A DNA stretch of 63,660 bases, filler included, from Sphacelaria rigidula (taxonomy: Eukaryota): NCBI GenBank assembly GCA_964200075.2. It is 9 parts of 9 records of this genome, joined end to end, with 100 filler letters (N's around TTAATTAATTAA, not from the genome) between each part and the next. Parts side by side here need not be neighbours in the genome. Positions count along the whole stretch, not along the records: positions 7,086 to 14,070 come from CAXNAA020017077.1; 8 more parts are not named here. One strand, given 5' to 3'. Each line of letters opens with the position of its first letter. The stretch's first letter is position 1. The notes below the pieces were generated by a model. The model saw only the letters and a list, made by a program, of their open reading frames with translations, was not told the origin of the DNA and did no database searches. Below, piece by piece: positions 3,683 to 56,700 of the stretch. The position numbers and the translations under genes are program-made.

Positions 3683-4588
3683 TTGTCTCTCTTTTCTTCC
3701 TCACCACTTTTTTTTTATATTTCGAGCCCTTTTTTGTCCCCCTCCTTTTTTTATTTTCAGCTCCTTTCGTTATTTTCTTGCCACCGCTACCCCCTACCGC
3801 TGCCGCACACCTTCCGATTGTTTCAAGCTGCTGCGTCTTGGGAGCGCCCATCTCATTTATTTTCGGGTTTTTTCACTGCACAAATATCGTATCGCGCGTG
3901 GTGGTTGTTGTTTTTGCTGTTCTCTTCACATTTGAAACCGTTCCGTGTGTGTGGCAGAGGCCGGCCATTTCTTTCCTCTCCTTTTTATTTATTATTTTAT
4001 TTTTCTTCCTCTTGCTTCAGTTTTGTTTCGTCTCGGGTACCTTTATAATGTGGATCTCGACCGCGGCTGGATCATGACTCCTGGGGGGTCAGTTCAAGCG
4101 CGACGATCAATCAAATCCGATCTCTGCCTTGTACCGGTTAACAATCGCACTGGGCATCTGATGCGGATGCCTCATGTGGTCACAGGCTAGATATTTGATA
4201 GCAACTATCCAACATGAGGTATACGAAAATCAAAGGAAAACATAAAATAGAAAACTCAGAATAATCAACACAGACGCGAATCCGAAGGAACGTTGGAGGC
4301 AAACATCGTGCAATGTTCACACCCTGGACAACAGCGTGAATACACAGTCGAAGAGTGCACTGCGTACAATATCGACTATTGCGCCTATTGCAACGGACAA
4401 GAGATCCCATACTGTGCGCAGTACATTTTTTTACAGTATAATCTTTTGTCCAGGACGTGGTACTGTTGAAAATAGATGGCGCAATATACTCACAGGCGTC
4501 ACAGTGAAGACCCGCCCTTTCCGTCGTCGCTCTCATTCTCTCTTCGGGACCATCCTTGACGTCGCTGGATGTGCGCATGTACATACAG

Positions 4589-5691: not shown

Positions 5692-6045
5692 ATTACCCCG
5701 GTGGCTCAGTTGGTAACCTCGAAACATTCTGAAGGTTGTGTCGTCGATTGGAATCTCGGTGCAGTAACACAAACCTGGAATTTTCCTCACACAGTGGCCA
5801 ACAGTGGAGAGCGACCATGTCGTTAGTACACAAAATTTGACCATGCGGTCGACGACGGAAAGAGACTGCTAAACCTCTCTCGCGATAAAAATAAGGCAAG
5901 CACCGCAAAAGGAAGGTAGAGTAATAATTAAAAAAAACTCCTGTGTTGGCCTTCCTCCTGTGTGACCCCGGCTAATGGGCCCACATATACCGAAAGGTGT
6001 CGACTGGGATCAAAAATAGACGAGATGACAACAATACATCACACA
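5692..6045 (+). mobile_element. tRNA-derived SINE (~350 bp, CA-rich tail)
   Basis: A box ggtggctcagttggt, degenerate B box, body shared with at least 5 other copies (ccaacagtggagagcgac...). Confidence 0.8.
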
Positions 6046-6171
6046 TAGCTGGCTCGTGCCTATCGATCGTTGCTACAGGCGAGCCTAAAAGTGTGTCCGT
6101 CGACGTGCATGATTGATTGGCTCACCTCTACCCCGTGTTTCCGTGGTTTTCAAGCTTGTGTTCAGTAGGGT

Positions 6172-6545
6172 ATGTGTGTTTCGTTGTCGTCGTCCCATCT
6201 ATTCTGGACGGCAGTCTGCACTTTTCGGTATATGTGGGCGCATCAGCCGGGATCACACGGGAGACATGCTAACACACGAGCTTTTTCTTTTTACTTTTGC
6301 TTTGGTAGTCCGCCTTCCTTATGCGGTGCTTGGCAATATATTTTTTCGCGAGAGGGGTCCAGCAGTCTCTCTCTCTCTCGTCGACCGTGAATCCATTCGA
6401 AGTATGTGTATCCACAACAAAGTCGCTCTCCACTGTTGGGCATTGTGTGAGGAAAAATCCCAGATGGTGTGACTGCACCGAGATTCGAACCCACGACCCA
6501 ACCGTCAGAAAGTGTCGAGGTTACCAACTGAGCCACCGGGGCGAC
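6172..6545 (-). mobile_element. tRNA-derived SINE, best-preserved copy
   Basis: Reverse complement reads gtcgccccGGTGGCTCAGTTGGtaa...gtgGGTTCGAATCtc, with intact Pol III A and B boxes, and ends in (CA)n. Confidence 0.85.
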
Positions 6546-6985: not shown

Positions 6986-7085
6986 NNNNNNNNNNNNNNN
7001 NNNNNNNNNNNNNNNNNNNNNNNNNNNNNTTAATTAATTAANNNNNNNNNNNNNNNNNNNNNNNNNNNNNNNNNNNNNNNNNNNN
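6986..7085. other. Artificial 100-nt scaffold spacer (N-run, TTAATTAATTAA, N-run); also at 14071, 21156, 28241, 35325, 42409, 49493 and 56577
   Basis: Eight identical spacers carrying a six-frame stop linker. Intervening pieces are 6985 bp (four) then 6984 bp (five). Confidence 0.98.
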
Positions 7086-7330
7086 CCCTCCAGGCAAAAC
7101 AAGCCTCCAGAGGCCTTTCATCCCATTGGAGGAAACCAAACACTACCGACCCGGAGGGCCGCGCATCCCTCCGGAGGAATTTGGGGTATGCGCGGCCCTC
7201 CAGAGGTACAAACAAGCCTCGGGAGGCGTTTAATCTCTCTGGAGGAAACAAAAAATCTCCTCTGGAGGGCCGCGCACCCCTCTGGAGGCTCGAAAAGGTT
7301 ACCCACCTGGAGGAATTATGGGGGTAGCCA
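7086..7330. repeat. Cluster of short ccctc(c/t)ggagg-type quasi-palindromic repeats, probably the subterminal array of a DNA transposon
   Basis: About 8 variants of cctc.ggagg/cctccagagg, three of them in a cgcgca.ccctc-like context. Confidence 0.5.
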
Positions 7331-7961
7331 AATGGCCGCGTGTGCAGTTGTCAAGGCTTTGGGTCAGGGAAAGCACTATTTTCGAGTTGAAGCTCATTTT
7401 TATGTTCAATCCCATTTATTAGGATCCTCTGTTATTCTCAGTTTTGAAATATCACACAGTACAGCACACAGTGTACTGACGTATCATCATGCGAACGATA
7501 TACTATGTGCCACTTTATGTGTGCTAGGGTTGCTACTGAATCACACCCATAACTAAGTGGCTCAATAGAAACAATACTCGATAATTGGCAGCTGGAAGCT
7601 GGCAGCTGGCAGCTGGCAGCTGGCAGTCATCATTCAGCACTCACAAACCGGCGGTTTTGTCACGCCACATGGACACATGGGGCACCGGTATGGGCACCTG
7701 CTTAGTGGCCGCCGGCGACGCATGGGCTATACGCGCGAACTTATGCGCATTCTATCCTCATTATTATGCGTTTCAAAACCAAAAATATGTGTTTTGATCA
7801 AAAACATGATGAAGCGCTAAAGAACCGAATCATGCAAATCTTTATGCGCGCATAGAGGGTGAAGACTTGATTTTCATTCTTTCTATTATGATGATATCTG
7901 CATGGAAATGGATGGAAATATGTGAATAGTATGAAAAGTAACACCCGTCAATAAGGGCCCT

Positions 7962-8050
7962 TGGACGGCGAGAGTAGGTCACCTGTTCCATCCGCACCAA
8001 TTTCACTTGAAAAAGGTATGCATGGCCAAGATGGACTATCCTCGCGGTAT
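7962..8050 (+). mobile_element. ~90-bp mini-MITE (TIR ~tagaccgcgagggtag); other copies at ~40955-41037 (+) and ~41333-41392 (-)
   Basis: Shared core gcaccaa(c)tttcacttgaaaaa.gtatgc.tg..c.agatggacta.cc with inverted termini. Confidence 0.65.
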
Positions 8051-9436
8051 AAGGTTTAGGCACCACACCTCTCTGATGTAGAATAGTCGGGTTTCCCCAC
8101 ACAGGCGCTGATAACCCGACGTTGTCCTTTGGTCAAATCGAACGTAACCCGATCTCGTGTGTGCACGTTTTCTCAACAACTCTTAACACGGAATCCTCAC
8201 AAATGGGAACGAGATTTTCCTAGGGGAGCGAAGTGATGGCGAAATTGCAAATAAGATAGACTCGTAGTACTGGTCAAAGGTACCTTTCGGTCTTCTAGTA
8301 GGTGGTATGGCTGAGGTCCCCGCACAGTTACAGTGGCTAAGGTTAGAGGCAGGCGAGGAATATTATTATACTTCATCATGCGTGCGACATCCCCCCGCAT
8401 TTGTTTGTCGCGTTTGTGTGAGGTAGACCGAACACTACCCGACATCACGAGATTAGAACGGGCACAGAGCTGAGTGTTTGAGGGATTAAACCAGACCAAA
8501 CCGCGTTGCGTCCGTGATAAGTGTACAGGACGATGGAAATTATCTTTAGGGTAGATTGTTGGAAGAATACGAGCAAGCAGCAGCAGCTTTTCACTGTAGG
8601 TCGTGGATGGCGACCCGACGTTGTAAAGGCAATTGATCACGACTTGCTTAACAACGTGACCGTTTGCAGATCGGTTCATCTTTCGCCGTGCTCATGCGTG
8701 GTAGTTGACAGTGGCGGCTCGTTCTTTCAGACAAGGGTTGTTACGAAAAAGGATTCCGATGCTTAGTCTTTGTACTGGATAAAATCCAGAGAAAAGGCTT
8801 CACTCTACACTTGATCCAACACCGGAGAGGAGAGACACTCACGCCATTAATAAAGTTGATGATTTGATGGTGTTGTGGGAGTGGGGAGATATTACAGTAG
8901 TGGTGCGCGGAACAAATTTTGAACGGCGGATCGTTTTCACAACAAATTTGGAGCATGTGGGGCCAGCGACCGTGGGGGTGTCCCACGAGTACACAGTCCT
9001 AGGTTTTAGCAGGCTTGTTGTCATTTTCACTCGACCGAATCATTCTTGATCATGGTGGACAGTCGTCCGGAATCAGTTCTTGAATTTGTCAGCCATTTAC
9101 GCAACAGCCCGGTGGTTCCGCCGGCAACCTCGAAGCCTTCCGACAAATGGAACGTAGGTAAATATCTCGGTGAAGAGTCGTGACTCGGTAGGGATGCTTA
9201 AATAATATCTGGGCTGGCGTATTGAAGTTATAGACCCTCGCGCACTTCCACTGGTGCACTTAAATAGGACGAGAATGCGGCTGAACGTGAGGCGATTCTC
9301 TCGCAGGCGAACACCACAAGTTGTGAAAAGTGTCATTCTTTCGCTTCACAACGTGAAAACACCTGACAGTTTTTTTCGGCCAAAAATGCGCACCCCAACC
9401 GTCGCACGACTCTGAAGTCAAACGACCTCGGTTGTT

Positions 9437-9710
9437 TCTCACACCATGCCCAATAGTGGAGAGCGACCATGTCATGAGTACACGAAGTTCGACTTCACGA
9501 TCGACGAGGGAAAGAGACCGCTGAATCCTGTTCGCTATATCAAGTGGGGGAAACGCCGCAAAATGGAGGTGGGGCACTGAAATAAAACCAAGATTTTCTG
9601 TGTTGACCTTCTTCCGCTGCGATCCCTGCTGATGTGCCCACATATGCCGAGAGGCGTAGATTGGCGTCCAGAATATAGGTGATGAATTCACACACACATA
9701 CACACACACA
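9437..9710 (+). mobile_element. tRNA-SINE body; other copies at 10393-10585 (-, partial), 41049-41305 (+) and 49275-49350 (-, partial)
   Basis: Aligns with the 5692 and 6172 copies and ends in (CA)n. Confidence 0.75.
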
Positions 9711-10844
9711 GCTGAAAAAATGTGTTTTCGGACCAACGTACGGGTGGTGACACCGCCCACAAAAAGAGGTTTCAACCCCGTATTGCCCCGACAATACAAA
9801 ATTATATGTCGTCAACGATCGGTTCCTCCTTCCAAGGCCTGCCGATTTTCGAACTTTCGAGTGGAAATTGTGACAATTACGACAACTTGTATTCAAATGG
9901 TGACTACAGTACAGTTCGTACTGTATCTGATTTAAGAGGGAATGTTTGAATGCTCGTATAGCTTGCCTAGCAACATCTATCATCGTTCAACGCTAATTTA
10001 TCAGAAACCGTCATCCTTATTCATTTGGTGACATACATGGGGATTAAGCGACAAGGGTGAACGGAATTATTCCGCCCGGGGGATCAAGGTCAATGAGTAA
10101 CAACACGCGCGCTCACGCGCGCACACTACCGACGCCGGATGGCCGGCATGAAACAAGGGCTCAACATAACAGAGTCGCCATGAGAACGGGGTCACACCAC
10201 CGTCCTTCCTGCTCACGACCACCCCTTGCCCTACATGACAAGAGAGGAAATAACCGTAGCTTCGGAGTATCTTCGGCAACGTAACTACGACAGTAGCCTT
10301 CAGCAAGAGGGACCGCAGACCCGCCGTTCGGCAGCTCACGAAGTCGTATCGTAGGCACCTATTCACAGCGGAGACAACTGCGACTTCCCAATTTGTGTGT
10401 GTGTCTTGTCGTCCCATCTACTCCGGACGCCGGTCTATTTATACACATTCCGGTATATGTTTGCGCACCAGCTGGGGTCAAAGGAGGAAGGCCACGACAG
10501 GAGTTTTTTTTTTCTGTTTTGTTCTAATACTCCACCTTCCTTGTGCGGTGCTTGCCCCTTGTTTTATATCGCGAGGGGGATTTGCTTATCTAAATTCCAA
10601 AATATTCACAGTGATCCTTGGCTACAATCGTACGACCATAAACATGCAACCATCAATCAATGCATGTTTGTAATACATAAGCCTCACCAAAACGTGGTGC
10701 GAATTCCCAGCCCTGCTACAATCGACCGCACCATAATGTACATAAAATATGAGAACGAATAAACGATCCTCCATAATCAGACATGCAGCTCCGTTTGACC
10801 TACGCTAGATTCCGACATAATGAACCACGCATGAACAACATCAG

Positions 10845-10950
10845 TTAACGTCGAGCCACAACGCCGAAAGCCTTCTTATCCGTCTTGCAATCACGAAAAC
10901 CAGCGGCCACGAGCCGCTCTATCACGCCCCGGAACAACCTCCCGCCCTCG
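10845..10950 (-). CDS. COG2521-like methyltransferase terminal exon (EGGRLFRGVIERLVAAGFRDCKTDKKAFGVVARR*)
   Basis: cgtag| acceptor, phase matches the previous exon (AA|C = Asn). GV.ERL..AGF......A.GVVA C-terminal motif. TAA stop at 10845-10847. Confidence 0.88.
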
Positions 10951-11381
10951 CTACGGTCGCACGCGCCAAGATTGGTAGACAGGAAGCAAGCACACAACAG
11001 CACAAACGCAAGTGCGCGCATAATACAGCGCACACAGACAACGTCGTACGGCCGGGCACGAGGGAAAATATATGTATGTGGTTACGTTCACGGTGTGGTC
11101 GTGTGTGTTCGGGGGTACACATATGCAAGGCACATTCAATGTTGAAACAGAAAGAGATACGCATCATTTCTAGTGGAGCTGTTACACCGGGCAGATGCTG
11201 CGCCATGCCAGTTTTCCCGAATATTGCGTGTAGCGATGTCTCAGAACAGTGCCCAGGTGGTGGTCAAGAGCATGGTATATGGAAAACTACACGAACGAAC
11301 GTGCACATGAATGCGAGAAAGTTGGACTGCAGGAGAGCAGAACGGTTTTCCGCCACAAGAACGTTTCCGGAATTCTCTTAC

Positions 11382-11551
11382 TTGCTCGTTGGGTTGCCAA
11401 TGTAGTGAAACAGCGTACCCCCCGGCTTGAGCACTCTGGCAAGGTCTGAGTAGAAAGCGGCGCCGTACATATCTGTCGTCTTGCACAGGGCACGCGCAGG
11501 TGGATCGTGGATAATAGCCGCGAATTCGCCGTCGGCAAAATCTTTCACCAG
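11382..11551 (-). CDS. COG2521-like methyltransferase exon (LVKDFADGEFAAIIHDPPARAL...MYGAAFYSDLARVLKPGGTLFHYIGNPTS)
   Basis: Pyrimidine tract with cacag| acceptor, AA|GTAAGA donor. Contains IIHDPP (motif IV) and RVLKPGG.LFHY.GNP. Confidence 0.92.
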
Positions 11552-11685
11552 CTGTGAAGGGGGGAGGGGAGAGGCACCGAAACATATTGTCGCCGCCGAA
11601 ATGAGTTTTGTGCACGCGCAGTTGTCTTGCTCTGCACCAAAAGCATAGGTGACGCGTTGGCTTGCTCTGTAGTTTCGGTTCACAC

Positions 11686-11869
11686 CTCACAGCAGTCCCC
11701 CTCGAGGCTGGTGATCTTGTCGCTCTCGAACATCTCTCGGCTCCACGGATTGCGGGCGCACAACCGCAATGACACCTCGTCGAGTTCCACGGTGACAACA
11801 CCAGAAACACCGCGACCCCGTGCAGCAGCGATTGCGGTGTAGCCTAGGCCGGTGCAAGTGTCGAGGACC
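11686..11869 (-). CDS. COG2521-like methyltransferase exon with SAM-binding motif I (VLDTCTGLGYTAI...VVTVELD...NPWSREMF...LEGDCCE)
   Basis: ctcag| acceptor, GAG|GTGTGA donor. VLDTCTGLGYTAI and NPWS are signature motifs of this family. Confidence 0.92.
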
Positions 11870-12125
11870 CTGAGTGTTTGCGTTGCAACAACCGAAGGGT
11901 GAGGTACACAGTATGCTCTCTTCGATGAGGGATGGGCGCGATGTGAACAATTCGATGTAACCTCGACCAAACGCAAAGCTCGCGTGGGTGCGATACCGAT
12001 TGGGTCTTGGCGGGGCGTGAGGGGGCGAAGTGAACTACGAACACATGGTTCCGCACACCCTCGTCACTGCCAACAAGACTAAATTTTCGTATTTTATTCC
12101 AACGTCATCCGCGTGAGCTACGTAC

Positions 12126-12193
12126 TTTCCATGCGCCTGCCGTGCACCAGATGCCGTCACTTTGTGCTCCGTGTCCAGGCCAGGCTCCATCGT
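12126..12193 (-). CDS. COG2521-like methyltransferase exon (TMEPGLDTEHKVTASGARQAHGK)
   Basis: cgaag| acceptor, AA|GTACGT donor (phase 2, completed by the first G of the next exon). EPGLDTEHKV resembles DP..DT..KV. Confidence 0.75.
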
Positions 12194-12500
12194 CTTCGAA
12201 ATCACCCATCAATGGAAAGACGGGAAGATAGCATGGGAGAAACACGGCGAGTAGAAACTGTGAATATAGTCAAAAGACACGTCTTGTCTCGTCGGATCTC
12301 TATATTCTAGTGTCACCCAGGAGCCCGAGTAATCTCAAGTTTAGACCATGGTGGATGTGTACTCAGCGCTCACGTTACTGGAAAAGGCCATGAGGCACGC
12401 CTCACGCTCTGGGACAAAACCATATTGTGGCCGACATCATACAAATGGTTACGTCACTGGCGTAACTTGCTTGTGTAACCTATACTACATGCGCGCGTAC

Positions 12501-12622
12501 CGACTTTTGGTCGCCGCCGCTGATGCGGTGCATGGCAAACCCGCCCAGCACCATGGTAGGCGGCCCCGGCGCCCGAAGAGGGGCGCAAAGCATGGCCGCA
12601 CGGCCGGTACTCTCGCTGAAGT
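12501..12622 (-). CDS. COG2521-like SAM-dependent methyltransferase, first visible exon (FSESTGRAAMLCAPLRAPGPPTMVLGGFAMHRISGGDQKS)
   Basis: gtcag| acceptor, TCG|GTACGC donor. PPTMVLGGFAMHRI resembles the family N-terminal motif APT..I.GI.MHR. Confidence 0.8.
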
Positions 12623-12685
12623 CTGACACCTACCAAGCCACGCCGCACGAATGGTTTGGGCGTATGAGGGAAGAGGAGAGAGCAA

Positions 12686-14070
12686 TGTTGGTGTTGTCGT
12701 TGTTGTCTTCACATTAAAACTGTTCCGAAATCTGCGCGGTACATTCGTACTGGGCATTTGATGCGGACGCCTTCCGTGGTCACAGGCTAGCTGCCTATAA
12801 TGAGGAATGAGGAAATCAAACAAAACGGTAGAAAACGAAATAGACCCAGATTAAAAACTTACAACACGCGATACAAGCAAAACAGGAATCTATCATTAAA
12901 AAAAGAGAGAATACATATGGCTAAGCTCAGAAGATCCGGTGCCGCAGGTGGCCATTCGGACTTCAGGGGGTGGCACCCGGCTCTCCAACTCGACGCGCGA
13001 GGCCGAGTAGAAATGAACATAGGGTCCGACTACGGGCGAAACTCAAGGCCCAAAAGACCACCAACCAGAGAACTAAGAATCGCAAGGTGCCATCTTTCGA
13101 CCTCTCGAGGGACAGTCATACGCACAAGCATACCAGGCATATCAAGACAAGAACTGCATGACATGACGACACCCGTCATCGGGGGGGTTCACCCCCCACC
13201 CCCCCTTCTCTGGACCATCGTCCTTGCTGTGTTATCTTGGCTTCTTTGGTCTCCCGTCCAATCGCACGCAGTCGGCTGGCCTCCTTATTCCTGTGCCATG
13301 AGGTCATGAACCTCTCCGCTCCCTGCAGCACTCCCACGTGCCACGGCAACCCCTCCTCCTTATTCGCTGCTGAGGGCCATAGGACGCGGTCAATTCCGAA
13401 TGTCTGGCGGTTGTCGTCCGTAGAGCCGTCTGTGGCTCCGAAAGCGTGGCGATCGTCCCTCAGGCACTTCACCTAGTTTTGTTCCGGGCACTCTGGTCCT
13501 GGATCTTCCCCCCGAGTAGTGTTCCGAATGCTATTCGCTTCGGTAGTCGTCCGTCCGCTTGTCTAGCCAGGGCTGCCGCGAACAGCAGTTGTCGTTGCCG
13601 GACGATCGCTTCGGCACTTCGTTATCCGGTCTTCTTGAGGGCCTGTGCATACGAAAGCTGTCGGTATGTGCCGGGCACTCGGCGGCACCCGATGACTCGC
13701 AGGAGGAGCCGGTAGTGTTCCTTTCTCAGCAAGTCGTAGTGTTCGCGGCGTGGGGGCAACGTCATGCATCCGTACAGTAGGGCCTCCATCGCCTCCGCTT
13801 TCAGCAGTCGGACCTTGAATCTCCACGGTGCTTTCGGTCGGTGAAAGAGCTCTCGGGAGAACTTCCTGATGCACGACCACGTTGCTCTGCTCCGATTGTT
13901 GATTTCTTGCTTGAGTTCGCCCTCTCCGTTGACGAGCCGGCCCAAGTATCGGAAACTTGTTTTTCGGGCGTATTTCTGGCCCGCTGCTTCGATGATCAGC
14001 CGTGGGGGAGATGGTGTTGGTGGCTCCCCCTTCTTTGGTGCTTGCCTCGGTACTCGCATCAAAAGAGTCT
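12686..14070 (-). mobile_element. LINE (non-LTR retrotransposon) 3' fragment: RT C-terminus, 3' UTR and (ACA)n tail; most likely inside an intron of the methyltransferase gene
   Basis: FRYLGRLV....EL.QEI.NR...W, KVRLLKAEAMEALLYGC and LLLRVIG motifs, with disablements. The 3' UTR motif tagcctgtgaccac...gcatca.atgcccagt also occurs at ~4150-4190. Confidence 0.88.
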
Positions 14071-14384
14071 NNNNNNNNNNNNNNNNNNNNNNNNNNNNNN
14101 NNNNNNNNNNNNNNTTAATTAATTAANNNNNNNNNNNNNNNNNNNNNNNNNNNNNNNNNNNNNNNNNNNNAGGGATGCGAGGTCAATGGTCTCATGACTG
14201 CGGCATGCGTGATCATGAGTACACCCCCTCCTCCCCACCGCACGCGAGAGATACGCGAGGGTATAGTTGATGCCAACTTTGTTTGAATGCATTCGATACC
14301 TGTGGTACCCATCCTTGACTTTGAACGTTGGAACTTTGACATTTTTTTTCGTGGTCGGGAACAAAACGAATTGAATCTCAACAG

Positions 14385-20632: not shown

Positions 20633-21599
20633 TGATGAACATGAACTCGCATGGATAGATGGCATTTCAAGCTGGGGTGTTGATTCCACGGTCCAGTGGT
20701 GAGGCCCGGTGACCTTCGAATCAAGCGTTGCAATACCTTCCTGCTAGAGACGGCACCGGCTTTGAGTTGACAACCAAAATGTATACCCGACCCCTCGTCG
20801 GGTGGTCGGTAGCCGTGCGAATGACCTTTTGAACTCAGCATTACATCCCCGCTACGAGCTGGACCAGCCAAGAGTAGGCGCGAACCTCGCTCAGGCAACG
20901 CACGGCGAGATATTAGGAGTTGGCCGCTGAAATTTCGACAGCACCTTTTCGTGATCGAAATGCCGAAAGTCACATGAGCAGGGAAGAAAGAAAATACAAA
21001 TAAGGAAGTTATGGGGATTCGAAATTTCAGAAGAAGAAAGTAGATGGTGTCGCAAGCCCAGGGAAAGAAGCTGCAGCTGGATTCGTGAAGTATCAGTTCC
21101 TTGGGTGCAGAAGATCTTCCTGAAATTTCAGCTCAACACTCGTCGAATTGGGCCGNNNNNNNNNNNNNNNNNNNNNNNNNNNNNNNNNNNNNNNNNNNNT
21201 TAATTAATTAANNNNNNNNNNNNNNNNNNNNNNNNNNNNNNNNNNNNNNNNNNNNTCTCCCCCACACACCTGCGGCGGGGGGGGGGGGGGGGGGGGGGGC
21301 TATCGTAGAAAGTGTCGGCAGCCCACTCCCCTTTCCCGTCGACAACGCTTGGCGCCGTCTCAGTCCACCACCGGCGACGGGCAAGTTCATCGCCTGAACC
21401 AAGGTCTGCCAAGCGGTACAACATAGCTCAAAAGAGAAGTCTTCCGTGACAAGTCTTGTGGGTGCTGCGCATGCGCGAAAACCTCAAACCAGCCTACGAT
21501 CGCCGTACTGTCGATTACTCTGCCGATTCCCCACGCTCGTGTCAGGAAGGGACACGACGTGCACAGTTGGGAACGGATGAACGACAAAACGACACGCCT

Positions 21600-27300: not shown

Positions 27301-30194
27301 TCGTGACTACATTGCTGGACTCACGAGCGGATGGTCAAGTGTGCCAGACCCCCATCAAACTCGGACAGAGGTGCAACGGTATTGAAACCGGATAGGTTTC
27401 TGTGGGATAAAAAGTGGTCTGAAGACGTCCCAACGCGGGTGGTGTCGAGAACACCTCACGCTGGGAAGGGATATGGACACATATGCGCGTACAAGCACCA
27501 ACTAGTGAGAGACTGGAGTAATACCTTCGAATGACAGCATATCGTGTCCGTAGTGGCTCTATCTCACGCTTGACCGTGTGTCTCGAAAGCGTGTGTGACG
27601 ACGCCCCGGCGGATGTGGGGTAAACTGCCCCTCGGACACAAGTACGATCACAACAGACATTAAACACTTATTTGTACATGCCCTTTTCGCAATATCAGCT
27701 CATCCGTCCGCTGTGCAAATCAGAGCTGCGCGTTCGCAAGGCCACACAGGCACACACTATTGATCAGCTATTGATACCGACACATATTGTATTGGCGTGA
27801 TGACCACCCTCCAAATCTCGCCGCGTATTATGCACTTCTTCAAAGTCATGCTGAAGAGCTGAACGGTGTAGCGTATTGTGGTAGGGAAGGCGGGGTATGC
27901 TCATGATCATGCATGCCATAGTCATCAGACAATTGACCTCATCCCTACAACGCCGGGACGGGGCACGTTCGCCGGACCAGGCTTGCACTCAAACAACCAA
28001 GCGCGAAGCGCCGTGGTGTGTTCGGCGAGTCGCATGAAGGGTGAGCTGCATCCTGCCATTAATTGTTAGACCCGAAGCCTAGTGATTTATCTTGCATTTG
28101 AATGACAGGCAAAAATGAGTTGCTTTATTCTTTGGTATCGCCACTTCCAGAGGCAGACACGGCTTTTACACTGCCTCATGGGTGCATACCATATTGCATG
28201 TGCATATAATTGGGGGGGGGGGCGTACTCCTTTGTTGCTTNNNNNNNNNNNNNNNNNNNNNNNNNNNNNNNNNNNNNNNNNNNNTTAATTAATTAANNNN
28301 NNNNNNNNNNNNNNNNNNNNNNNNNNNNNNNNNNNNNNNNGGTCCCCGTTCCCCACCGTAGTACTAGTCTGGCTTAACTTTTGACGTGAAACGTGAAACA
28401 TGAAAGTGTAACGTGGTTTTTTGCCCGGGGAAATCGCTAGTTTGCGCTGTCCTATTGAAAATCTGCGCCAGGCAATCCCAATTATGCTCAATCCTCCTTC
28501 AAATCTGCTGTTTTTTCTGAAAATCTTCGACAAATGTCGGTTTTCCTGCTGTTTCATTTGCGGCCGTTTTTCTGCGCAAAAAAACGGAATTCTGCGTTTT
28601 CTGCGGCCGCAGATGGAGTCATAGCCTGATGATATCATGATGCCAGCGACACTCTGAACGCTCTCAGTTGACATACTCAATGCGCTACTTCAAGTTCAAG
28701 TTGCAGTCGAGGGGTCAGCCCCTACATGTACAGTCAAACGTTTCGTAGACGGTCCGAGATGTGCATTTGGGAGCAGGTGAGGAAACTATGCTTCCACGCA
28801 AGACTAAGAAAAGCGGGGACCACCAGCCCCCGGCACCGACACAACATCAGAGCGAGTCGCCAGCAACGTACACCAAGGTAGCACGTGCTCGAAATGCGCC
28901 TTATCTCCGGCACAGATTTGAATATACACGGTGAGTCGCGGAAATATATGGCGGCGCGGAGACAGACCGGGCATGACACACTTCAGGGCGTTGCCTATCT
29001 TAACACGTTCTTGATCGCATGCCACATCGGCGGACAACGCAAAGATCTCGACTGAAAGTTTAAAGACGAACGCAGTACTCACGAGACACTGCGTCTCCGG
29101 GGGGCCTTCGGGTTGTGCTCGGCGTTCTCCAACAGATTGCTCGAAACTCGATACGCCTGCGCGAAAAAACCATAGAGGGGAGAGTGGTGCAGGATGTACT
29201 GAGGGGTGGGGGGGGGCGAACACCACTCGCGAGTGGACGGGCGTGCCGCGGCAAGCCGGTACTACCTTACGCACACAATTTTGAGGTGACGCTTTTAAGT
29301 ACTGTTCACAGGCATATGGACATATGTACAGCATCGATCCAAACCCCCTTGATCATTTGTACAGACCTATGGGCATATAAACGCAAAAATACTCATTATG
29401 GATGGACAATGAAAGTTCTGGTTCAAATCTGTGCTGTTGTGGTATTATTTTCGCGGTGCAAATGTTGTTTCAACAACATTATATATATATGGATCGTATT
29501 TAGGCAGTTTGTATAACTGAGGTCCCCCGGCAATGTTCCTCATGACTGGGGGACTGAACGCAAGAGTATTCACGAGGCAGTTGCAACAGCTTGTCTTATC
29601 CGTCTTGTCGTGTCAACATCGCGCACCGTATCTGCGCGATGTTTTTCCTCTTGAAAAAAACAAAATGCGCAGGTGAACTCGGATGCACCTACTTGTTCCA
29701 TGGCAAATCTGCACATCGCCCGTGAGGAGTAGAGCTTGAAGATACCTTACGTGCCGGTGCTTTTACACGACGAAAAAAAACCAATCCCCTGGACATCCCC
29801 CACCCCGGCCCTACCCCCACATCACCCCACCCACCACACCTCGCACTCGTTCCCTCCAGGCGGAAAGTCACAGCCAGCGTGATCCTGATACTCGACCTTT
29901 AGTGTAGGGAAATTGTGGCGGCTGTCGGAGCGCATGCAATTACAGAGGAGTTTACGAAGGTGAATATGAACCAGCCTTGCTCCTGTTGCTGGATGCACAG
30001 TCGATGGAGCGGGCTTGCACAGTCTTGAACTTTGATTTGAACTTTTTGGAATTGTCTTCCGATTTGGCTTCCTTCAGACTTCCGTTTTTTCATTCGAGAC
30101 GACAGACGTGGCTCGTGAAAAAAAACTACCCCGCTCCTGTTCAGTGGTACAGCAGGGTCTGCCTGAACTGTATCGAGTCGCTGGTGAGGCCGCT

Positions 30195-35324: not shown

Positions 35325-35486
35325 NNNNNNNNNNNNNNNNNNNNNNNNNNNNNNNNNNNNNNNNNNNNTTAATTAATTAANNNNNNNNNNNNNNNNNNNN
35401 NNNNNNNNNNNNNNNNNNNNNNNNCCTTCTCTCCACCTCTCGGGCGTGTACTCGTTCTCCCAGATCCAGTTGTACAGCATGACCAT

Positions 35487-39790: not shown

Positions 39791-42700
39791 TGCAGTCCCA
39801 TGCATAGCTGCTGAGCATATTATGCGTACAACGAACTCGGTCGGATTGTTGGTATTCGAATGTGCATGAGTGTCACGGATCGATCCAGGAAGCGGTCCGG
39901 GTCCTAAGGTAGTGCTGCGCCTTCCTCCACTTGCTAGGATTAGCGATGTGTCATGTTCCAGTTTTGAACATCAGAGGACGACAACAGTCCTCCCCTCAGT
40001 GTTTCATGCAGGACTTCCTTGTAATTCATTGTCCAGACTTCCGTTCGAGTCTAGGCCTAGCATCAGCAATAATCAATACACGATACCACGACTCTGCAAT
40101 CCTGGGACTTGTCTTATATTGCTTTCTCTGCCTCATCACTGAGGATCCGCTGACCACGTCCCTACTGAGCTCTCCGGTCAACGATCTTATATCCAAAAGG
40201 CAACCGCATCCAGGTACCTCGTAATGGTTTGGGGTTACGTGCAAGGCATCTTGAGGCAGCCAGCTGTACATCAAGACAGCTGCTATCGGGAAGCCTTGTC
40301 ACAAATCGGTGGTAAAGGCCTAGAGGTAAAGGGTGCCAGTCTGTGGGCGTCTGAGCACCCTCGGGCTCATGCACATTTGAGTACCATCGGTTCGTACCGA
40401 GTTCGCGGTACGCACATCATGCTCAGCAGCGAAGAGGCTGCGCGTTGTCATGCAGGTGCTCAAGAACATCGGCTGCATGCGAGTCGGGCTTACTTTAGAC
40501 GAAGACCAACGACACCTCAACAACATTTTCGTGAAATTGAGAGTTGAAGATCCAATTGAGAATGACATCTGTTTCCGACCGGCGTGACATTCATCTTTTA
40601 AATGGTTACACGACACGTTGACTCCTAGCATAATAAGAGGCCCGTTGATCCTCAAAGCTGTAGACCTGATGAAATGTTCGTACACAATGGTTGACAGGGA
40701 TGACTACTCGATTTTAGAGTTGATAAAGTGAGCAGTGGACCCAGCTCGTCCAGAACGTGTTTTTGTCGAAATCGGAGCCTGCCGCGACGTTTCAAAGTCT
40801 GCCAACGCACACTTTGGCTCGGGGAAACTATGCACACTCCTCGCTCGAGGGTCTCGTACGCCTTGGGTCGGGGTTAGTGTTAGTGTTAGTCTATAACATT
40901 CAGTGATGTTCCCCATCAACCATTATCTACGAGCATTTCTTCAGTTTTTTTTCGATAGACCGCGAGGGTATGTCACCTGCTGAATCGGCACCAACTTTCA
41001 CTTGAAAAACGTATGCGTGATCGAGATGGACTACCCGCACCGCGGCGGTCGCCCCAGTGGCTCAGATGGTAACCTCAGAATCTTCTGACGGTTGCGTCGT
41101 GGGTTTAAATCTCGGAGCGATCTGGGATTTTTTCTTACACCATGCCCAACAGTGGAGAGCGACTATGTCGTGGGTACACAGAGTTCGACTTGATGGTCCA
41201 CGAGGGAAAGGGACTGCTGAACCCCTCTTGCGATGAAAAAGGAAAAGCAAGAACCGCAGAAGGAAGATGGAGTACCAAAAACAAGTGGGAAGACAACACG
41301 CACACCCGAATCACGGGCTCAGGGCTAACCCTTAGACCACGAGGGTAGTCCGTCTGAATCACGCATACCTTTTTCAAGTGAAGTTGTAGCACCGGCCTCG
41401 TGCTCGACGAGTCCTTTCTTTTCACTTGTTATTATCACGGAGTGATCCTTAACAGATCACATCAAGAGCCAGACAGCAAGGGGCCACACAGATGAGGGTC
41501 ATCAACTCAGGATCCCCTGTCCCCTGCGACTGCTCCAATCATGCATACGATTATACTGAAATCTACGGCTTGGTATCATTTGGCTACAGGTTTCACCGTG
41601 ATTCGTATGCTGCCATCTCCCTTAGGGTCGACCACTGACGGCGAAGGGCAATGCCCAAGGGGGGAGTGTCGTATCAAGCCGGCTCGTGAGCATTCATCCA
41701 GTATAGCGTTCACGTCTTTGGTAAGGACTGAATTTTTCCGATATGGTCTTGAAGAGATGGACGTTGTGCGGTGTTGGAGTTTTGGCTCGAAGGGAAGCGT
41801 CTTGCCGTGCCCCGAATCGGGTTGAATCCTCGAAAAACGATCTTGATACGAGTGATGCCACGATAGGGGAGGGCGGGGTACTCATGATCATGCCATAGTC
41901 ATGAGACCGTTGACTTTGCATCCCTTCAAAGCCGTGACGGAGCACGCCGGGTTTTCGCCGGACCAGACTCGCACCCAATCACCAAGCGCGAAGCACCGNN
42001 NNNNNNNNGTCGCATGAAGGGTGAGCTGCATCCTGCTGAGATTGGTCGGCCCGAAGCCTACTGACTATCTGGCATTTGGGTGACATCCTACAATAAGTTG
42101 CTTTATTTTCTGGTGTCGCCACTTCCAGAGACAGCCACGGCTCATACGCTGCCTCATGAGTGTCTCACCATTTAAACACTACGTAGCACGACCGTCTCCA
42201 TTGTGCGGAGTTGAGGTTCTCCCACGCCGCACAACATGACCAAGCTCGACTACCATCATGTTTATAGCAAAAAAAAACGCGGACGCAAACACAATCGGTA
42301 ACCTGGTTGCCTAGCTGACGCAGTGAGTGGCGTGTTTTACAGCGGCATGGCCAACCGATGCCCACCCCATCGGGGGTCCGCCCCCACAAAGCCGGGACGG
42401 AGCACGCCNNNNNNNNNNNNNNNNNNNNNNNNNNNNNNNNNNNNNNNNNNNNTTAATTAATTAANNNNNNNNNNNNNNNNNNNNNNNNNNNNNNNNNNNN
42501 NNNNNNNNAACTTTCTTGATAATCCCTGAGTTTTTCCTTATCTCTGAGTTCTGATTTGTGTTTCCGAAACTCTCTAATATAGGTGTATATTATAGGTTTA
42601 AACTATACACATGCTTCTTCTCCTTAGTATATACTATATTATATTATAAACAATATATTCATATACTATTCAATATAATTCTATATATAAATATTTATAT

Positions 42701-48970: not shown

Positions 48971-50127
48971 CTATTGGGTCACTCGAGAACACAGTCTGGA
49001 CCAAGTGTGAAGAACCCAAATCCCAACATGCCGCTGGCACAGCCACTTGCTTGACTAGAGACGTGACCTTTCTTCTGCATAGTTTCAACCTCACGGAAAT
49101 AGTCATGTCAGGGTGCGGCCGAACACGTTTTGGACGTCTTCAGGTCCGGTTCCGCAACAGTATAAACTGCTACGAACGCGAACGTCTCATTGACCGAGAA
49201 GTTAAAATGCCTGGGCACGGCTGAGTACGCTGCAGCTGTTTTGTGTGCTGTCGTCCCATTTGTTCTCGATTTCAGTCTCCACCTTTCGGTGTATGTGGGC
49301 GGATGAGCCGGAGTCACACAGGAGGAAGGTAACCCACACAAGTTTGTTTTCGTACTTCCTCTGTCCCATAAGTCTGTATCGTTATGTTTGTACGAGCCTT
49401 CGACGATGTCCGCTTTGATTTTCGATTGTTTGGTTGCATTCGTTGGCGTTTTTTGAGCTAGAAATAACACTTTTTCTACAATATTGGTACTTNNNNNNNN
49501 NNNNNNNNNNNNNNNNNNNNNNNNNNNNNNNNNNNNTTAATTAATTAANNNNNNNNNNNNNNNNNNNNNNNNNNNNNNNNNNNNNNNNNNNNGAAGGATG
49601 TCTGGCACACTTATGAGCCTTTTTTTTCGTGCAACCAAATACCCCCCCCCTATCGTAGGATGACTCTGGTATTGTTAATCAATCTGGGTTCACCAGGTGG
49701 CCTACACGATTATTACCGTTGCGATAATTATTCTGTGAACAGTTCGCCTAAATATCACCACCACGATGACAGGGTTATAAAGAGTACACTGAACAGACAC
49801 CATTCCCGTGATATTGTGAATGAATCCAGATTCACAAAATGATGTCCAGATCACTGTTTCGCTAAGCATTCTGTGAAACATCACAACAATGTCTCCAATT
49901 CAGTGACGATGGTACGAAAAAATGACTAAAGAGTAACGGTTCCCGTGATGCTTTGTGAATCTGTGTTCACACCGATCACCGTTGCGTTAGTCCTTCTGTG
50001 AATAATGCTCAAAGTGTCACCATTTCGGTGATGGTTTCGCCAAGAATCACAATACAATCACCGTTCCTGAGACGAACTTGGTGGATCCAGATTCACAAAG
50101 TTATTGCAGAACTAATACCGTTCCGTT

Positions 50128-53764: not shown

Positions 53765-56700
53765 ACAAGCCCCCCCCCCACCCCCCCCCACCCCCCCACC
53801 GCCCACCAACCTAGTAAGAGAAGAAGCANNNNNNNNNNCCCCAGCCCCGTCTCGAGAAGGAGGCATGGGCGAGGGTAAAACGACAGAGGCAAGCCCCGAA
53901 TGGGTTCCCCCCCCCCCCCCCCCGGACCTCTTCTACGAAAGGCGCGATGTATTCCCTCACAAGTATTCTACCTGCCCTCAAATTAGATATGTGGCAGAAC
54001 GGGGGAACGGACCAGGCGTCACGACTGCTTCGATATCAACTGCCCTAGAGCGCTGGCTCTGATCACCGATGTCACCCACGATGACACGCAACCGTCGCCC
54101 AGCAAAACGAAGGCTAAAGGCGACGCCAGCGCATGACTTCATGGCGCTCCTCGCTTGATCACTCCCTAGATTACCTTCAACCCGAGAGATGTTAAACTTA
54201 GAGGGCACGCGTCTTGTCGCCACTGTCACGGACCTACATGAGACCGTGTGTGAAACTTTAATGGGTGCGGTCTCGCCCAACCATTGGAGTGATGTTGCAC
54301 TACTGTGATGTGTCAACCGTCGCTCATAGCTATCTCACGAACAATGATCATCAGTCCTGATGAGGCTCTTTATTTCTGCGTCGGACAAGAGAGAGTCTAG
54401 TATACTCAAGTATAAACGCATGCTGCAATCCCAGAGCCCTCCATGAGCATCCAACGCGCACCTCAGACCCTGCCTCTGAGACGAGCAACCCGCCTGGGCA
54501 CGGATTATTGCACCTCATGTAGTTACGGTACTTATTTCACTTTTTCACGCTGCCGTCCCTCCCCATCCCATGTATTCTCGTCGTCTATCCTATCTTACCT
54601 CGTTCTTTGGATGATGACGTAGTTCCGGGAGGGCAATAACATGAAGATCGACAGCATATCGAGGTCTGCATTCGTCAACCGAACCTCCTTCGATCCAGTC
54701 GAACAACCCTTACGATGCTGTCTGTGCCCACATTGCTGTGTGGGCAAGTTGGTTATGAAGTCGCCGGTACGCATGCAGTCGCAGCTCCATGTTGGAGATC
54801 TCTCCGGATGGCATTGCAGCTGCCGATGTGATCTTCATACGTACGGCGGTTACAATCAATTCCTCCCAACTTCTCGCGTAAAAAAGGTATCCAGCACCAT
54901 GGAGCTGCATGGCAAGATTCTCTGCGACAGGGTTTTCTTGTACAGGACAGAAGTGGAGGGGCGATATCGCTGCACACCGCTGTGCGTGCATCATGAGACT
55001 CTGCCCAACATGCGACAAGAACCAAAGGCGATTCTCAATGCATCTCCCCAGTTCGTGGCGGGCTGCGAGGACGCCGCTGACAGTCCGGTTTTCGCTACAG
55101 AACAAGAGCTCAAGTGAGAGGTCTTCTTCACGGTTGACGATAACGGAAATGAGATTTGACCACCCCGGCGAGGAGAGCAGTCTTCTGTGTCTTAAACACA
55201 GCAGACTAGCTTCGGCGGTGATGAATGGAAGCCATAGAGGGCAAGTACGTCTGCGACCCCTAGGAAGATGAGTTTCGATATTCGTCGACATTTAGACTTG
55301 TTGCGTCATACGGAGCTTCGTCCCTTACCCCCACCCTCCCTGCCTGATTTTCGAAACCAGGGCTGAGGTCGGCGGTCAGTAGTACCACGAGACGGGTGCA
55401 CATTCTACGCCAAGAGTTGTCTTAGGTCAAGCACTTGGGCCCACACATTCTTATTGAGATGATCCACAACGTTGGAGCCGGAGCAGCTTTCCTTGCACCC
55501 GTATTTTGACACCACTCAGGTGGCCTGTCAACTAACCCCGCGTCAAGGTCGTCGTGATGACGAGCGCCGTTCGATGTTTCCCCCACTCTCCCAATCACTC
55601 GTGGTTGTAGGCTGCACACATCCCATGTACCGGTGGTTTCTCCTCCCTTTTCTCCCGCAATCGGGTCATGTTGTCGATGTCGCTCGCCCCTACCCCCCCA
55701 GCCAACCCCCCCCCCTTCCCCCCTGTCGCTAGGAATGAAAACCGGACCCGAGGAAGGCAAATCATCGTATGCCTGTGCCTCATGAAGGCATGAAACCGAG
55801 CATGAACATCGCACATTATCGCACAGGATACCCAGCGTCTGCTATGCGGCCGTCGTCGGCGCGGGCGGTGGTGTGGACAAAGGGCTTAACGATAGCCTTT
55901 TTGGTGAACATAAGACCAATTACACTCCGCCTCTTCCCTCCCCGCCGGCGGAAAATGATGCAACGCGTGGCTTTCAGCGAGATGATATCCACTCTCGAAG
56001 GAGGGCATATGAAAGTGGAAGCGGGCTTCAAGAGCGCTACACACACGACGAACAGGACGAGGTGCAATCCTAACACCGGACCCATAACCCCACCACAACC
56101 TTTCCTGGACGAGTCTTCTTCCGACTCGACGACAAGGTATGGGTATACTCATTTGTCGTCGCGAGCGACGACACATCGCAATAAAACGCCTGGGCACAGC
56201 ATGTTTTCAACAGATTGTTCCGAACAAAAAACTCATGCTGAATAGGGTCGTAGCCGCACCCGTGAACGGTTTGAAACTGATAACTGCGCGAAGCGCTTAA
56301 ATGTGCGACGTCGTTCGTGTATGGCAGACACTTCGTGTATGGCAGAGATTGTGGTCCGTTTGCTTTATACTAGAATCTGACGCCTAATCTTGGCTTCGGG
56401 CTGTGCAAGGTCAGCAGAACTAAGAAGGTCGCTTTTTCCGGCACGGTAGGCACTGCTCTAGCGCGTAAAACTAACGAGTCATCCTATGATAGGGGGCGTA
56501 CTCATGTGTTGCTTGCCTTAGTCGTTTGACCATTGACCACGCATCCCTTTCGAGACGGAGCATTACGATAGGGGGANNNNNNNNNNNNNNNNNNNNNNNN
56601 NNNNNNNNNNNNNNNNNNNNTTAATTAATTAANNNNNNNNNNNNNNNNNNNNNNNNNNNNNNNNNNNNNNNNNNNNAAAATGGACACAATCCCGGGGAGC

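Follow-up and report, generated by a model that had tools for sequence, protein, structure and literature searches.

The DNA analysed here (63,660 nt, referred to as the window) comes from the brown alga Sphacelaria rigidula (assembly GCA_964200075.2) and consists of nine joined pieces, each of 6,984–6,985 nt. On the minus strand of one of these contigs (positions 7086–14070) lies the 3′ part of a nuclear, intron-bearing gene whose product is predicted to be an S-adenosylmethionine (SAM)-dependent methyltransferase of the family of TK2045, the enzyme that makes N4,N4-dimethylcytidine (m4,2C) in helix 31 of the 16S rRNA of Thermococcus kodakarensis. The structure of the gene, its expression, its place in the family and the function that it may serve in algae are considered in turn below.

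Five minus-strand exons, totalling 657 nt, can be joined in phase into 218 codons followed by TAA without any internal stop, as established by reading and by a script check, the latter also finding AG before all five exons and GT at the beginning of all four introns. The first exon on the contig (exon a, 12501–12629, with acceptor AG at 12631–12630 and donor GT at 12500–12499) is internal in the gene; its translation, VSDFSES...PTMVLGGFAMHRISGGDQKS, comprises the last portion of the N-terminal domain together with the linker, contains the motif PTM..G.AMHRI and is matched by tblastn to residues 175–218 of the Ectocarpus protein P0009 (E 1e-17). Beyond an intron of 307 nt (12194–12500), exon b (12126–12193) encodes TMEPGLDTEHKVTASGARQAHG plus 2 nt, carries the motif EP..DT..KV and is matched by tblastn to P0009 residues 218–242. 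An intron of 256 nt (11870–12125) separates it from exon c (11686–11869), which holds the SAM-binding motif I VLDTCTGLGYTAI (11868–11830), VTVE.D (here VTVELD) and NPWS, and aligns to the TK2045 chain of the Protein Data Bank (PDB) entry 8VYD from residue 127 onward. Exon d (11382–11551), preceded by an intron of 134 nt (11552–11685), contains IIHDPP, with the motif IV sequence HDPPA, and the FY..L.RVLKPGGTLFHYIGNP block (FY..L.RVLKPGG.LFHYIGNP), and aligns to the 8VYD stretch with D205-P206-P207-R208; the H-D-P-P-A codons occupy 11495–11509 and in the alignment to 8VYD the Asp codon (11506–11504) corresponds to D205, the catalytic residue of TK2045. Finally, an intron of 431 nt (10951–11381) leads to exon e (10845–10950), which is made up of the coding sequence EGGRLFRGVIERLVAAGFRDCKTDKKAFGVVARR, including GV.ERL..AGF, and of TAA at 10847–10845, and is matched by tblastn to the C-terminus of P0009. 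All four introns have GT..AG ends. Exactly these five blocks were returned by tblastn with four orthologues (Ectocarpus, Scytosiphon, Chrysoparadoxa and one from EukProt), with E from 1e-31 to 5e-7. In an initial annotation made from the DNA alone, the gene had been given five exons and the same motifs in the same order, all of which are found in the translations; only its extent needs amending, since its start at 12622 falls 7 nt inside exon a and its “about 215” codons are 218.

All four joints are present in three samples of one study (X1, X2 and X3), in one contig per run, as CT..AC on the plus strand and hence GT..AG on the minus strand; they read 12193>12501, 11868>12125 (cut +1), 11551>11686 and 10950>11382, exon b thus having RNA joints on both sides. 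X5, a DNA-like run of another study, gave no contig with any of these joints and one unspliced contig over 10529–12728. None of the runs is on record as RNA, X1–X4 being labelled “RNA?” by guess, and it is because of the spliced joints seen in their contigs that X1–X3 are taken to be transcript-derived. Downstream of 10950 the RNA contigs are free of joints as far as 9663 (X1), 9789 (X2) and 9939 (X3), outlining an unspliced 3′ untranslated region (9663–10844, minus strand) of ~0.9–1.2 kb that holds a repeat at ~10265–10570. At the other end they cover 12501–12631 and then continue into upstream transcript sequence that is absent from the contig, over 662 nt in X2 (whose record has 2,377 nt) and 722 nt in X3 (2,287 nt). 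Since the transcripts run past 12631 into non-contig sequence, 5′ exons exist but lie off the contig; no credible tblastn match to the first ~135–237 residues of the orthologues, upstream of exon a, was found anywhere in the window, and no exon for the first 174 residues of the orthologues was found by tblastn in 12630–14070. Of the ~350–450 codons of an expressed nuclear brown-alga gene, the contig has the 218 at the 3′ end. The five in-phase minus-strand GT-AG exons ending in TAA proposed at the outset are thus borne out by the exon check, the RNA joints and tblastn, the four junctions that were to be sought by RNA-seq are all in hand, and the N-terminal exons are, as had been supposed, off the scaffold.

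A protein of Sphacelaria rigidula has been deposited from this locus as an unnamed protein product of 237 amino acids (P0006), to which the exon d peptide is 100% identical over the full length of the peptide. However, the deposited model (12035–12593, minus strand) starts at an internal ATG at 12593, skips exon b (12193–12126) and translates intron sequence, whereas both the RNA contigs and the Ectocarpus protein back the five-exon structure. The gene model of the initial annotation is better than the deposited one, which the present structure corrects.

The spliced product is identical to the Ectocarpus “predicted methyltransferase” (P0009) at 192 of 218 positions and to the Scytosiphon protein at 193 of 218, its nearest relatives being those of other brown algae (88% identity), and by this comparison it is the orthologue of P0009. 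Among characterised proteins, TK2045 is the best match across the methyltransferase domain. Indeed, 8VYD_A is the sole PDB sequence match of P0006 at E≤1e-3 (E 1.3e-37), P0009 matches 8VYD with E 2.6e-39 vs 0.0032 for the next entry, and the profile built from 46 sequences of the algal clade finds 8VYD with E 3.9e-77 over chain residues 20–287. Furthermore, aligning the algal clade by hhalign with 17 archaeal-type sequences yielded a probability of 100 and E 1.8e-83 over 283 columns (template 3–285 of 288). Judged from these alignments, membership in the TK2045/COG2521/arCOG00054 family of m4,2C synthases is near certain, and the early description of the gene as an intact, intron-containing eukaryotic member of COG2521 is upheld by the match of P0006 to TK2045. 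Neither Pfam nor NCBIfam has a dedicated family for the protein: the proteins give generic class I methyltransferase matches only (MTS, Methyltransf_25 and a weak Spermine_synth), as is the case of P0006 with MTS (32.4 bits), and the single exons, which are short queries, give sub-threshold generic methyltransferase matches for c and d and none for a, b and e.

TK2045 has been the subject of a functional study (Fluke et al., PNAS 2024, PMC11551388), the available part of which assigns it to COG2521/arCOG00054 and describes it as the m4,2C synthase of residue C918 of 16S rRNA, located in the helix-31 loop. Upon deletion of its gene only the C918 signal is lost. Ribosomes of the deletion strain are methylated by the recombinant enzyme, purified rRNA, transcripts and oligonucleotides are not, and N4-methylcytidine (m4C) is an intermediate of the reaction; m4,2C withstands bisulfite conversion (PMC11551388). 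Within its DPPR motif the substitution D205A abolishes activity, whereas P206 and R208 are dispensable, R208A being active, and a β-rich N-terminal domain (residues 1–77) is required if ribosomes are to be methylated efficiently (PMC11551388). The statement of the initial annotation that no substrate had been established for the family is therefore outdated, while its assignment of DPP to the position of motif IV proved correct, DPP being the catalytic motif that contains D205 of TK2045.

In the HMMER alignment I-I-H-D-P-P-A-R of the window product faces i-i-h-d205-p-p-r of 8VYD, so that the catalytic Asp and the DPP of the DPPR motif are both present (H-D-P-P-A vs h204-d205-p206-p207-r208). 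The corresponding H316, D317, P318 and P319 vary in none of the 46 rows of the algal clade, and in this alignment the window product keeps all 25 invariant and all 30 nearly invariant columns within its range; exon c alone retains the invariant D243, G247, L248, G249, Y250, T251, E268, D270, P281 and S283. The Rossmann-fold SAM-binding core can be recognised from motif I (VLDTCTGLGYTAI) and from the acidic motif II (VTVELD), both of which align to the core of 8VYD.

As to the N-terminal domain, only its last strands, encoded by exon a, are on the contig, but ~100 residues upstream of the methyltransferase core are conserved between the bacterial proteins of ~280 amino acids and those of algae, and P0061, from a member of the Chloroflexota, aligns from 24 to 283 with residues 20–280 of 8VYD (E 1.5e-53). 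The structure of the Ectocarpus orthologue P0009 was predicted by AlphaFold2 (AF2) from an 82-row alignment with a mean predicted local distance difference test score (pLDDT) of 86.3, residues 80–392 being confident and residues 1–79 not. A Foldseek search with this model returned 8vyd_A first (E 2.5e-22, target-normalised template modelling score 0.88) and spermidine synthases next (E 4e-11), and residues 78–392 of the model superpose on chain residues 2–279 of 8VYD, a structure released in 2024 and thus later than the training of the AF2 weights. The protein combines a small β-rich N-terminal domain with a class I Rossmann-fold SAM methyltransferase domain downstream of it. The algal clade retains the N-terminal domain, unlike what the available part of the published study states for the homologues of Chlamydomonas reinhardtii and Emiliania huxleyi, both of which are given as devoid of it (PMC11551388); truncated gene models of these two species may account for the discrepancy.

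When 1.84 billion cluster representatives were scanned in full with P0009, matches were obtained in 691 clusters at E≤1e-3, 496 at E≤1e-10 and 126 at E≤1e-30. The eukaryotes named in the search listings amount to 13 species, all algae and all photosynthetic, namely brown algae (Sphacelaria, three Ectocarpus, Laminaria, Scytosiphon and Discosporangium), other ochrophytes (Phaeothamnion, Chrysoparadoxa and Ochromonadaceae sp. CCMP2298), the chromerid Vitrella and the red algae Agarophyton and Rhodosorus; the restriction to algae is a pattern among named rows, most matches carrying no name. In prokaryotic genomes at least 590 stretches encode relatives, and the best 80 of these, obtained with a Chloroflexota query, belong mostly to Chloroflexota, with Armatimonadota, one Rubrobacter and one Cellvibrionaceae among the remainder. 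The ESM Atlas, whose search does not extend to small clusters, returned prokaryotic clusters only (Chloroflexota, Thermoproteota, Methanobacteriota and Pseudomonadota). No cyanobacterial name occurs among the bacterial names in the 240 rows listed, which is a hint only, no direct search of cyanobacterial genomes having been made.

Every named eukaryote falls within one 98-row clade (support 97) of a FastTree phylogeny of 320 rows. A second tree was built by IQ-TREE (LG+C20+F+G4 with posterior mean site frequencies, PMSF; 298 columns; support given as ultrafast bootstrap, UFBoot, and SH-aLRT) from 95 rows, comprising the 82-row alignment, 12 named loci and the window product; the exon peptides, P0006, proteins shorter than 200 or longer than 620 amino acids, P0152, P0196, L009, P0166 and P0184 were left out of the trees. 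Here 11 of 11 named eukaryote rows are united in a 47-row clade (100/96), and in 100% of 200 bootstrap trees the named eukaryotes are on one side of a branch. The clade comprises a 15-row group with both red algae (99/94) and a 31-row group with Vitrella and all ochrophytes (100/98), and within it the window product joins the other brown algae (100/100), adjoining Chrysoparadoxa. Seventeen archaeal-type rows, which include P0185 (full-length match to 8VYD, E 3.5e-78), split off at 99/95. In the maximum-likelihood (ML) tree the algal clade stands among bacterial rows of the Chloroflexota/Armatimonadota type, its nearest-neighbour join having a support of 81/73. However, in an approximately unbiased (AU) test, the groups of which were chosen after inspection of the tree, a topology that unites the algal clade with the archaeal-type group was not rejected (p 0.346; difference in log-likelihood, delta lnL, 8.56), and for this reason the claim of a bacterial donor was dropped. 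As far as these trees go, the algal genes have one origin, with the donor left between the bacterial-type and the archaeal-type groups; the label “archaeal” used in the initial annotation is accordingly loose, in that bacterial sequences surround the algal clade in the ML tree and the archaeal link retains a p of 0.346.

Some other rows of these searches deserve a mention. P0168, P0174 and P0187 constitute a tight group (100/99) adjoining the algal clade; their leaders are long and rich in S, T and R, their tails are acidic or basic and of low complexity, and they carry NPWS/NPHS and DPPS/DPPT vs the NPWS and DPPA of the window product. They look eukaryotic, perhaps of the green lineage, and we suspect, from composition only, that the P0137 group represents green algae. 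P0179 (528 amino acids), bacterial-looking, has ~240 extra N-terminal residues before the unit formed by the N-terminal domain and the methyltransferase.

The leaders preceding the conserved part of the algal proteins were scored by a heuristic of our own making. Of the 60 rows of the ochrophyte-type clade, 42 begin with Met and have the full domain; 30 of these 42 display a signal-peptide-like hydrophobic N-terminus, and in 14 of the 42 a small residue followed by Phe is found beside the hydrophobic stretch, with the conserved domain beginning within ~5–25 residues. In the red-type clade, where 30 of 38 rows are full length, leaders of at least 25 amino acids are present in 27 of the 30 and are net basic in 20 of these 27, while Phe occurs within the first eight residues in 14 of the 30. 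Leaders of this kind are what signals for plastid import are known to look like in red algae and in lineages with red plastids.

Taken together, these data suggest that the algal enzyme, like TK2045, would carry out the SAM-dependent N4-methylation, in two steps, of the helix-31 cytidine of small-subunit rRNA within the assembled subunit, a reading to which we assign a probability of roughly 65%. The algal protein would dock on the assembled small ribosomal subunit rather than on naked rRNA, and the cytidine of the helix-31 loop, which is universally conserved (position 967 in E. coli numbering), would be flipped into the pocket of the enzyme, where the Asp and the Pro-Pro backbone of the DPP motif would hold its N4; the methyl group of SAM would then be transferred once, to yield m4C, and a second time, to yield m4,2C. 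Gene structure, splicing, homology, fold and the conservation of catalytic and SAM-binding residues are shown; substrate, product and compartment in algae are inferred. As a first guess, prompted by the leaders of the family taken as a whole, which resemble signals for plastid targeting, the target would be plastid 16S rRNA, and the organelle location suggested in the initial annotation is a reasonable, if unproven, idea.

A number of points weigh against this reading, either in whole or as regards the compartment. In archaea, according to the available part of the study of TK2045, close homologues occur only in thermophiles and m4,2C is tied to growth at high temperature (PMC11551388), so that a role in a mesophilic alga is unexplained. 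A literature search returned no report on the activity, product or localisation of any eukaryotic member. The fourth residue of the catalytic motif is Ala instead of Arg, although the R208A variant of TK2045 is active (PMC11551388). Moreover, the predicted structure is that of the Ectocarpus orthologue and not of the window product, and the leaders were scored by a home-made procedure and not by HECTAR, ASAFind or SignalP. Finally, the leaders of the brown algae are acidic (D/E vs K/R: 18 vs 4 in P0009, 18 vs 2 in P0011 and 13 vs 1 in P0066), and by the heuristic these three proteins are not signal-peptide-like, which counts against plastid import as modelled; P0014 is not signal-peptide-like either, although it has a weak hydrophobic stretch followed by Phe. 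These brown-alga N-termini are gene predictions from other species, that of the window's own protein being off the contig.

Because the brown-alga leaders are acidic and have no signal peptide, a cytosolic (18S) target is also conceivable. The two sets of observations could be combined by supposing that the enzymes of the algal clade, inherited once by an early alga and spread with red-type plastids, are the first in eukaryotes to write m4C/m4,2C on the ribosome, that they would mark the plastid 16S helix-31 cytidine near the P site in mesophiles, and that the brown-alga enzyme, having lost the signal peptide and gained an acidic leader, may have been re-routed to 18S rRNA in the cytosol or nucleolus, next to the hypermodified pseudouridine that helix 31 carries there. 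This wider scheme is tentative, and taken as a whole we hold it rather doubtful; if true, a plastid helix-31 mark in mesophiles would show that the mark is not an adaptation to thermophily.

The alternative that fares best is that the algal proteins belong to the same family but do another job, modifying another RNA site or class (tRNA or large-subunit rRNA) or making only the mono-methylated product m4C. In its favor are the identity to 8VYD of just 33–37%, the 99/95 branch that separates the algal clade from the archaeal-type group, the fact that TK2045 is the one enzyme of the family assayed so far, and the moderate temperature at which algal and bacterial members operate, m4,2C918 being linked, in the available part of the TK2045 study, to hyperthermophily (PMC11551388). 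We consider it unlikely, albeit worth keeping in mind, that the algal enzyme departs in this way from its characterised relative.

A further alternative, namely that the protein is a polyamine aminopropyltransferase resembling spermidine or spermine synthase, derives from the public names of several bacterial homologues. The bacterial P0061, P0062, P0093, P0306, P0318 and P0360 carry names such as “spermine synthase” or “RsmD family RNA methyltransferase”; since the nearest solved relative is 8VYD (E 1.5e-53 for P0061), these names look like transfers from weak domain matches. On P0009 the Pfam model PF01564 scores 31.1 bits vs 22.9, over a partial range of the profile and overlapping generic methyltransferase matches, whereas the NCBIfam aminopropyltransferase models stay far below their cut-offs (NF002010, 34.1 bits vs 260; NF002956, 28.1 vs 472), the match to a spermidine synthase is marginal (3bwb, E 0.0087 vs 2.6e-39 for 8VYD) and the invariant H-D-P-P is the motif of exocyclic-amine methyltransferases, its Asp being catalytic in TK2045 (PMC11551388). 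An aminopropyltransferase is thus most improbable.

Equally hard to sustain is the view, emphasised by the initial annotation, that a brown alga recently acquired the gene from an archaeon or a bacterium in a lineage-specific horizontal transfer and that introns came later. This origin could be suggested by the prokaryote-rich nature of the family (at least 590 prokaryotic genomic stretches) and by its rarity in prokaryotes, where the available part of the published survey counts it in 57 of 1,309 COG genomes (PMC11551388). Against it stand the single eukaryote clade (100/96; 100% of 200 bootstrap trees), the 13 algal species that carry the gene, the nearest rows being brown algae at 88%, and the presence of the gene in other ochrophytes within the same well-supported clade as the brown algae; nor does any prokaryotic sequence nest among the brown algae in the tree. 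A prokaryote-derived oddity of one alga is not what the trees display, with 11 of 11 named eukaryotes in one clade, and the broadly distributed eukaryotic family that the initial annotation had set against its own proposal is largely what has emerged, in 13 named algal species.

As to the surroundings of the gene, the nine pieces of the window are separate contigs joined by spacers of N44 + 12 nt + N44 (filler runs at 6986–7085, 14071–14170, 21156–21255, 28241–28340, 35325–35424, 42409–42508, 49493–49592 and 56577–56676), and features on different pieces are therefore not genomic neighbours. Upstream of exon a, the 3′ part of a further intron (12630–14070, minus strand) is filled by a high-copy repeat and reaches the contig end. 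In the DNA-like run X5 the word depth ranges from 37,205 to 509,059 over 12560–14070 vs 73.6 over the gene, and peaks at 2,665–35,905 over the repeat of the 3′ untranslated region (~10265–10570). The assembly probably broke upstream of exon a because the contig ends in this high-copy repeat. Open reading frames of the upstream repeat (12630–14070 region) have no Pfam match, and an Rfam scan of the contig of the gene gave no match; weak copies of both repeats occur near 4141–4190 and 5879–6357, in the contig that opens the window. That the gene is a copy in decay or without function, or that it stems from a contaminant of the assembly, as its partial state on a contig ending in a high-copy repeat might lead one to think, is scarcely credible in view of a frame open across five exons, of spliced transcripts in three runs, of 55 of 55 conserved columns kept within range and of spliceosomal-type GT-AG introns, by which a prokaryotic contaminant is excluded.

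The gene of Sphacelaria does not represent a new kind of system, because the function of the family and its presence in algae are already published (2024; PMC11551388, in its available part), two algal homologues being mentioned there briefly. What is added to the published work is a single supported algal clade, the retention of the N-terminal domain, and leaders that resemble plastid signals in many members, the brown-alga models excepted, within a family that, across brown algae, is a conserved, expressed and intron-bearing nuclear gene. If the proposed function holds, algae growing at moderate temperature would have m4C or m4,2C in helix 31 of the small-subunit rRNA of their plastid or cytosolic ribosomes. 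The present data also call into question the “spermine synthase” names given to bacterial homologues.

Compared with TK2045, to which its identity is 33–37%, the gene of the window is a nuclear gene of a eukaryote, is interrupted by introns and belongs to a mesophilic host; its motif is DPPA and not DPPR, the algal orthologues have an extra N-terminal leader of 10 to ~145 residues, and the 99/95 split sets their clade apart from the archaeal-type group. By identity the closest prokaryotic relatives are bacterial homologues of ~280 amino acids and of Chloroflexota/Armatimonadota type (for example P0061, P0093 and L078 of Ktedonospora formicarum), 40–46% identical to the Ectocarpus protein vs 32–37% for the archaeal type, which have the same layout of N-terminal domain and methyltransferase, and on whose side the algal clade is placed in the ML tree, but which have neither leader nor introns. 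The homologues of Chlamydomonas reinhardtii and Emiliania huxleyi are, like the present one, algal and of the same family, and whereas the available part of the published report presents them as having no N-terminal domain (PMC11551388), the algal profile covers it. From the spermidine and spermine synthases (PABS, PF01564), on the other hand, the family of the window's gene is set apart by an identity of 12–19% and by its DPP methyltransferase motif.

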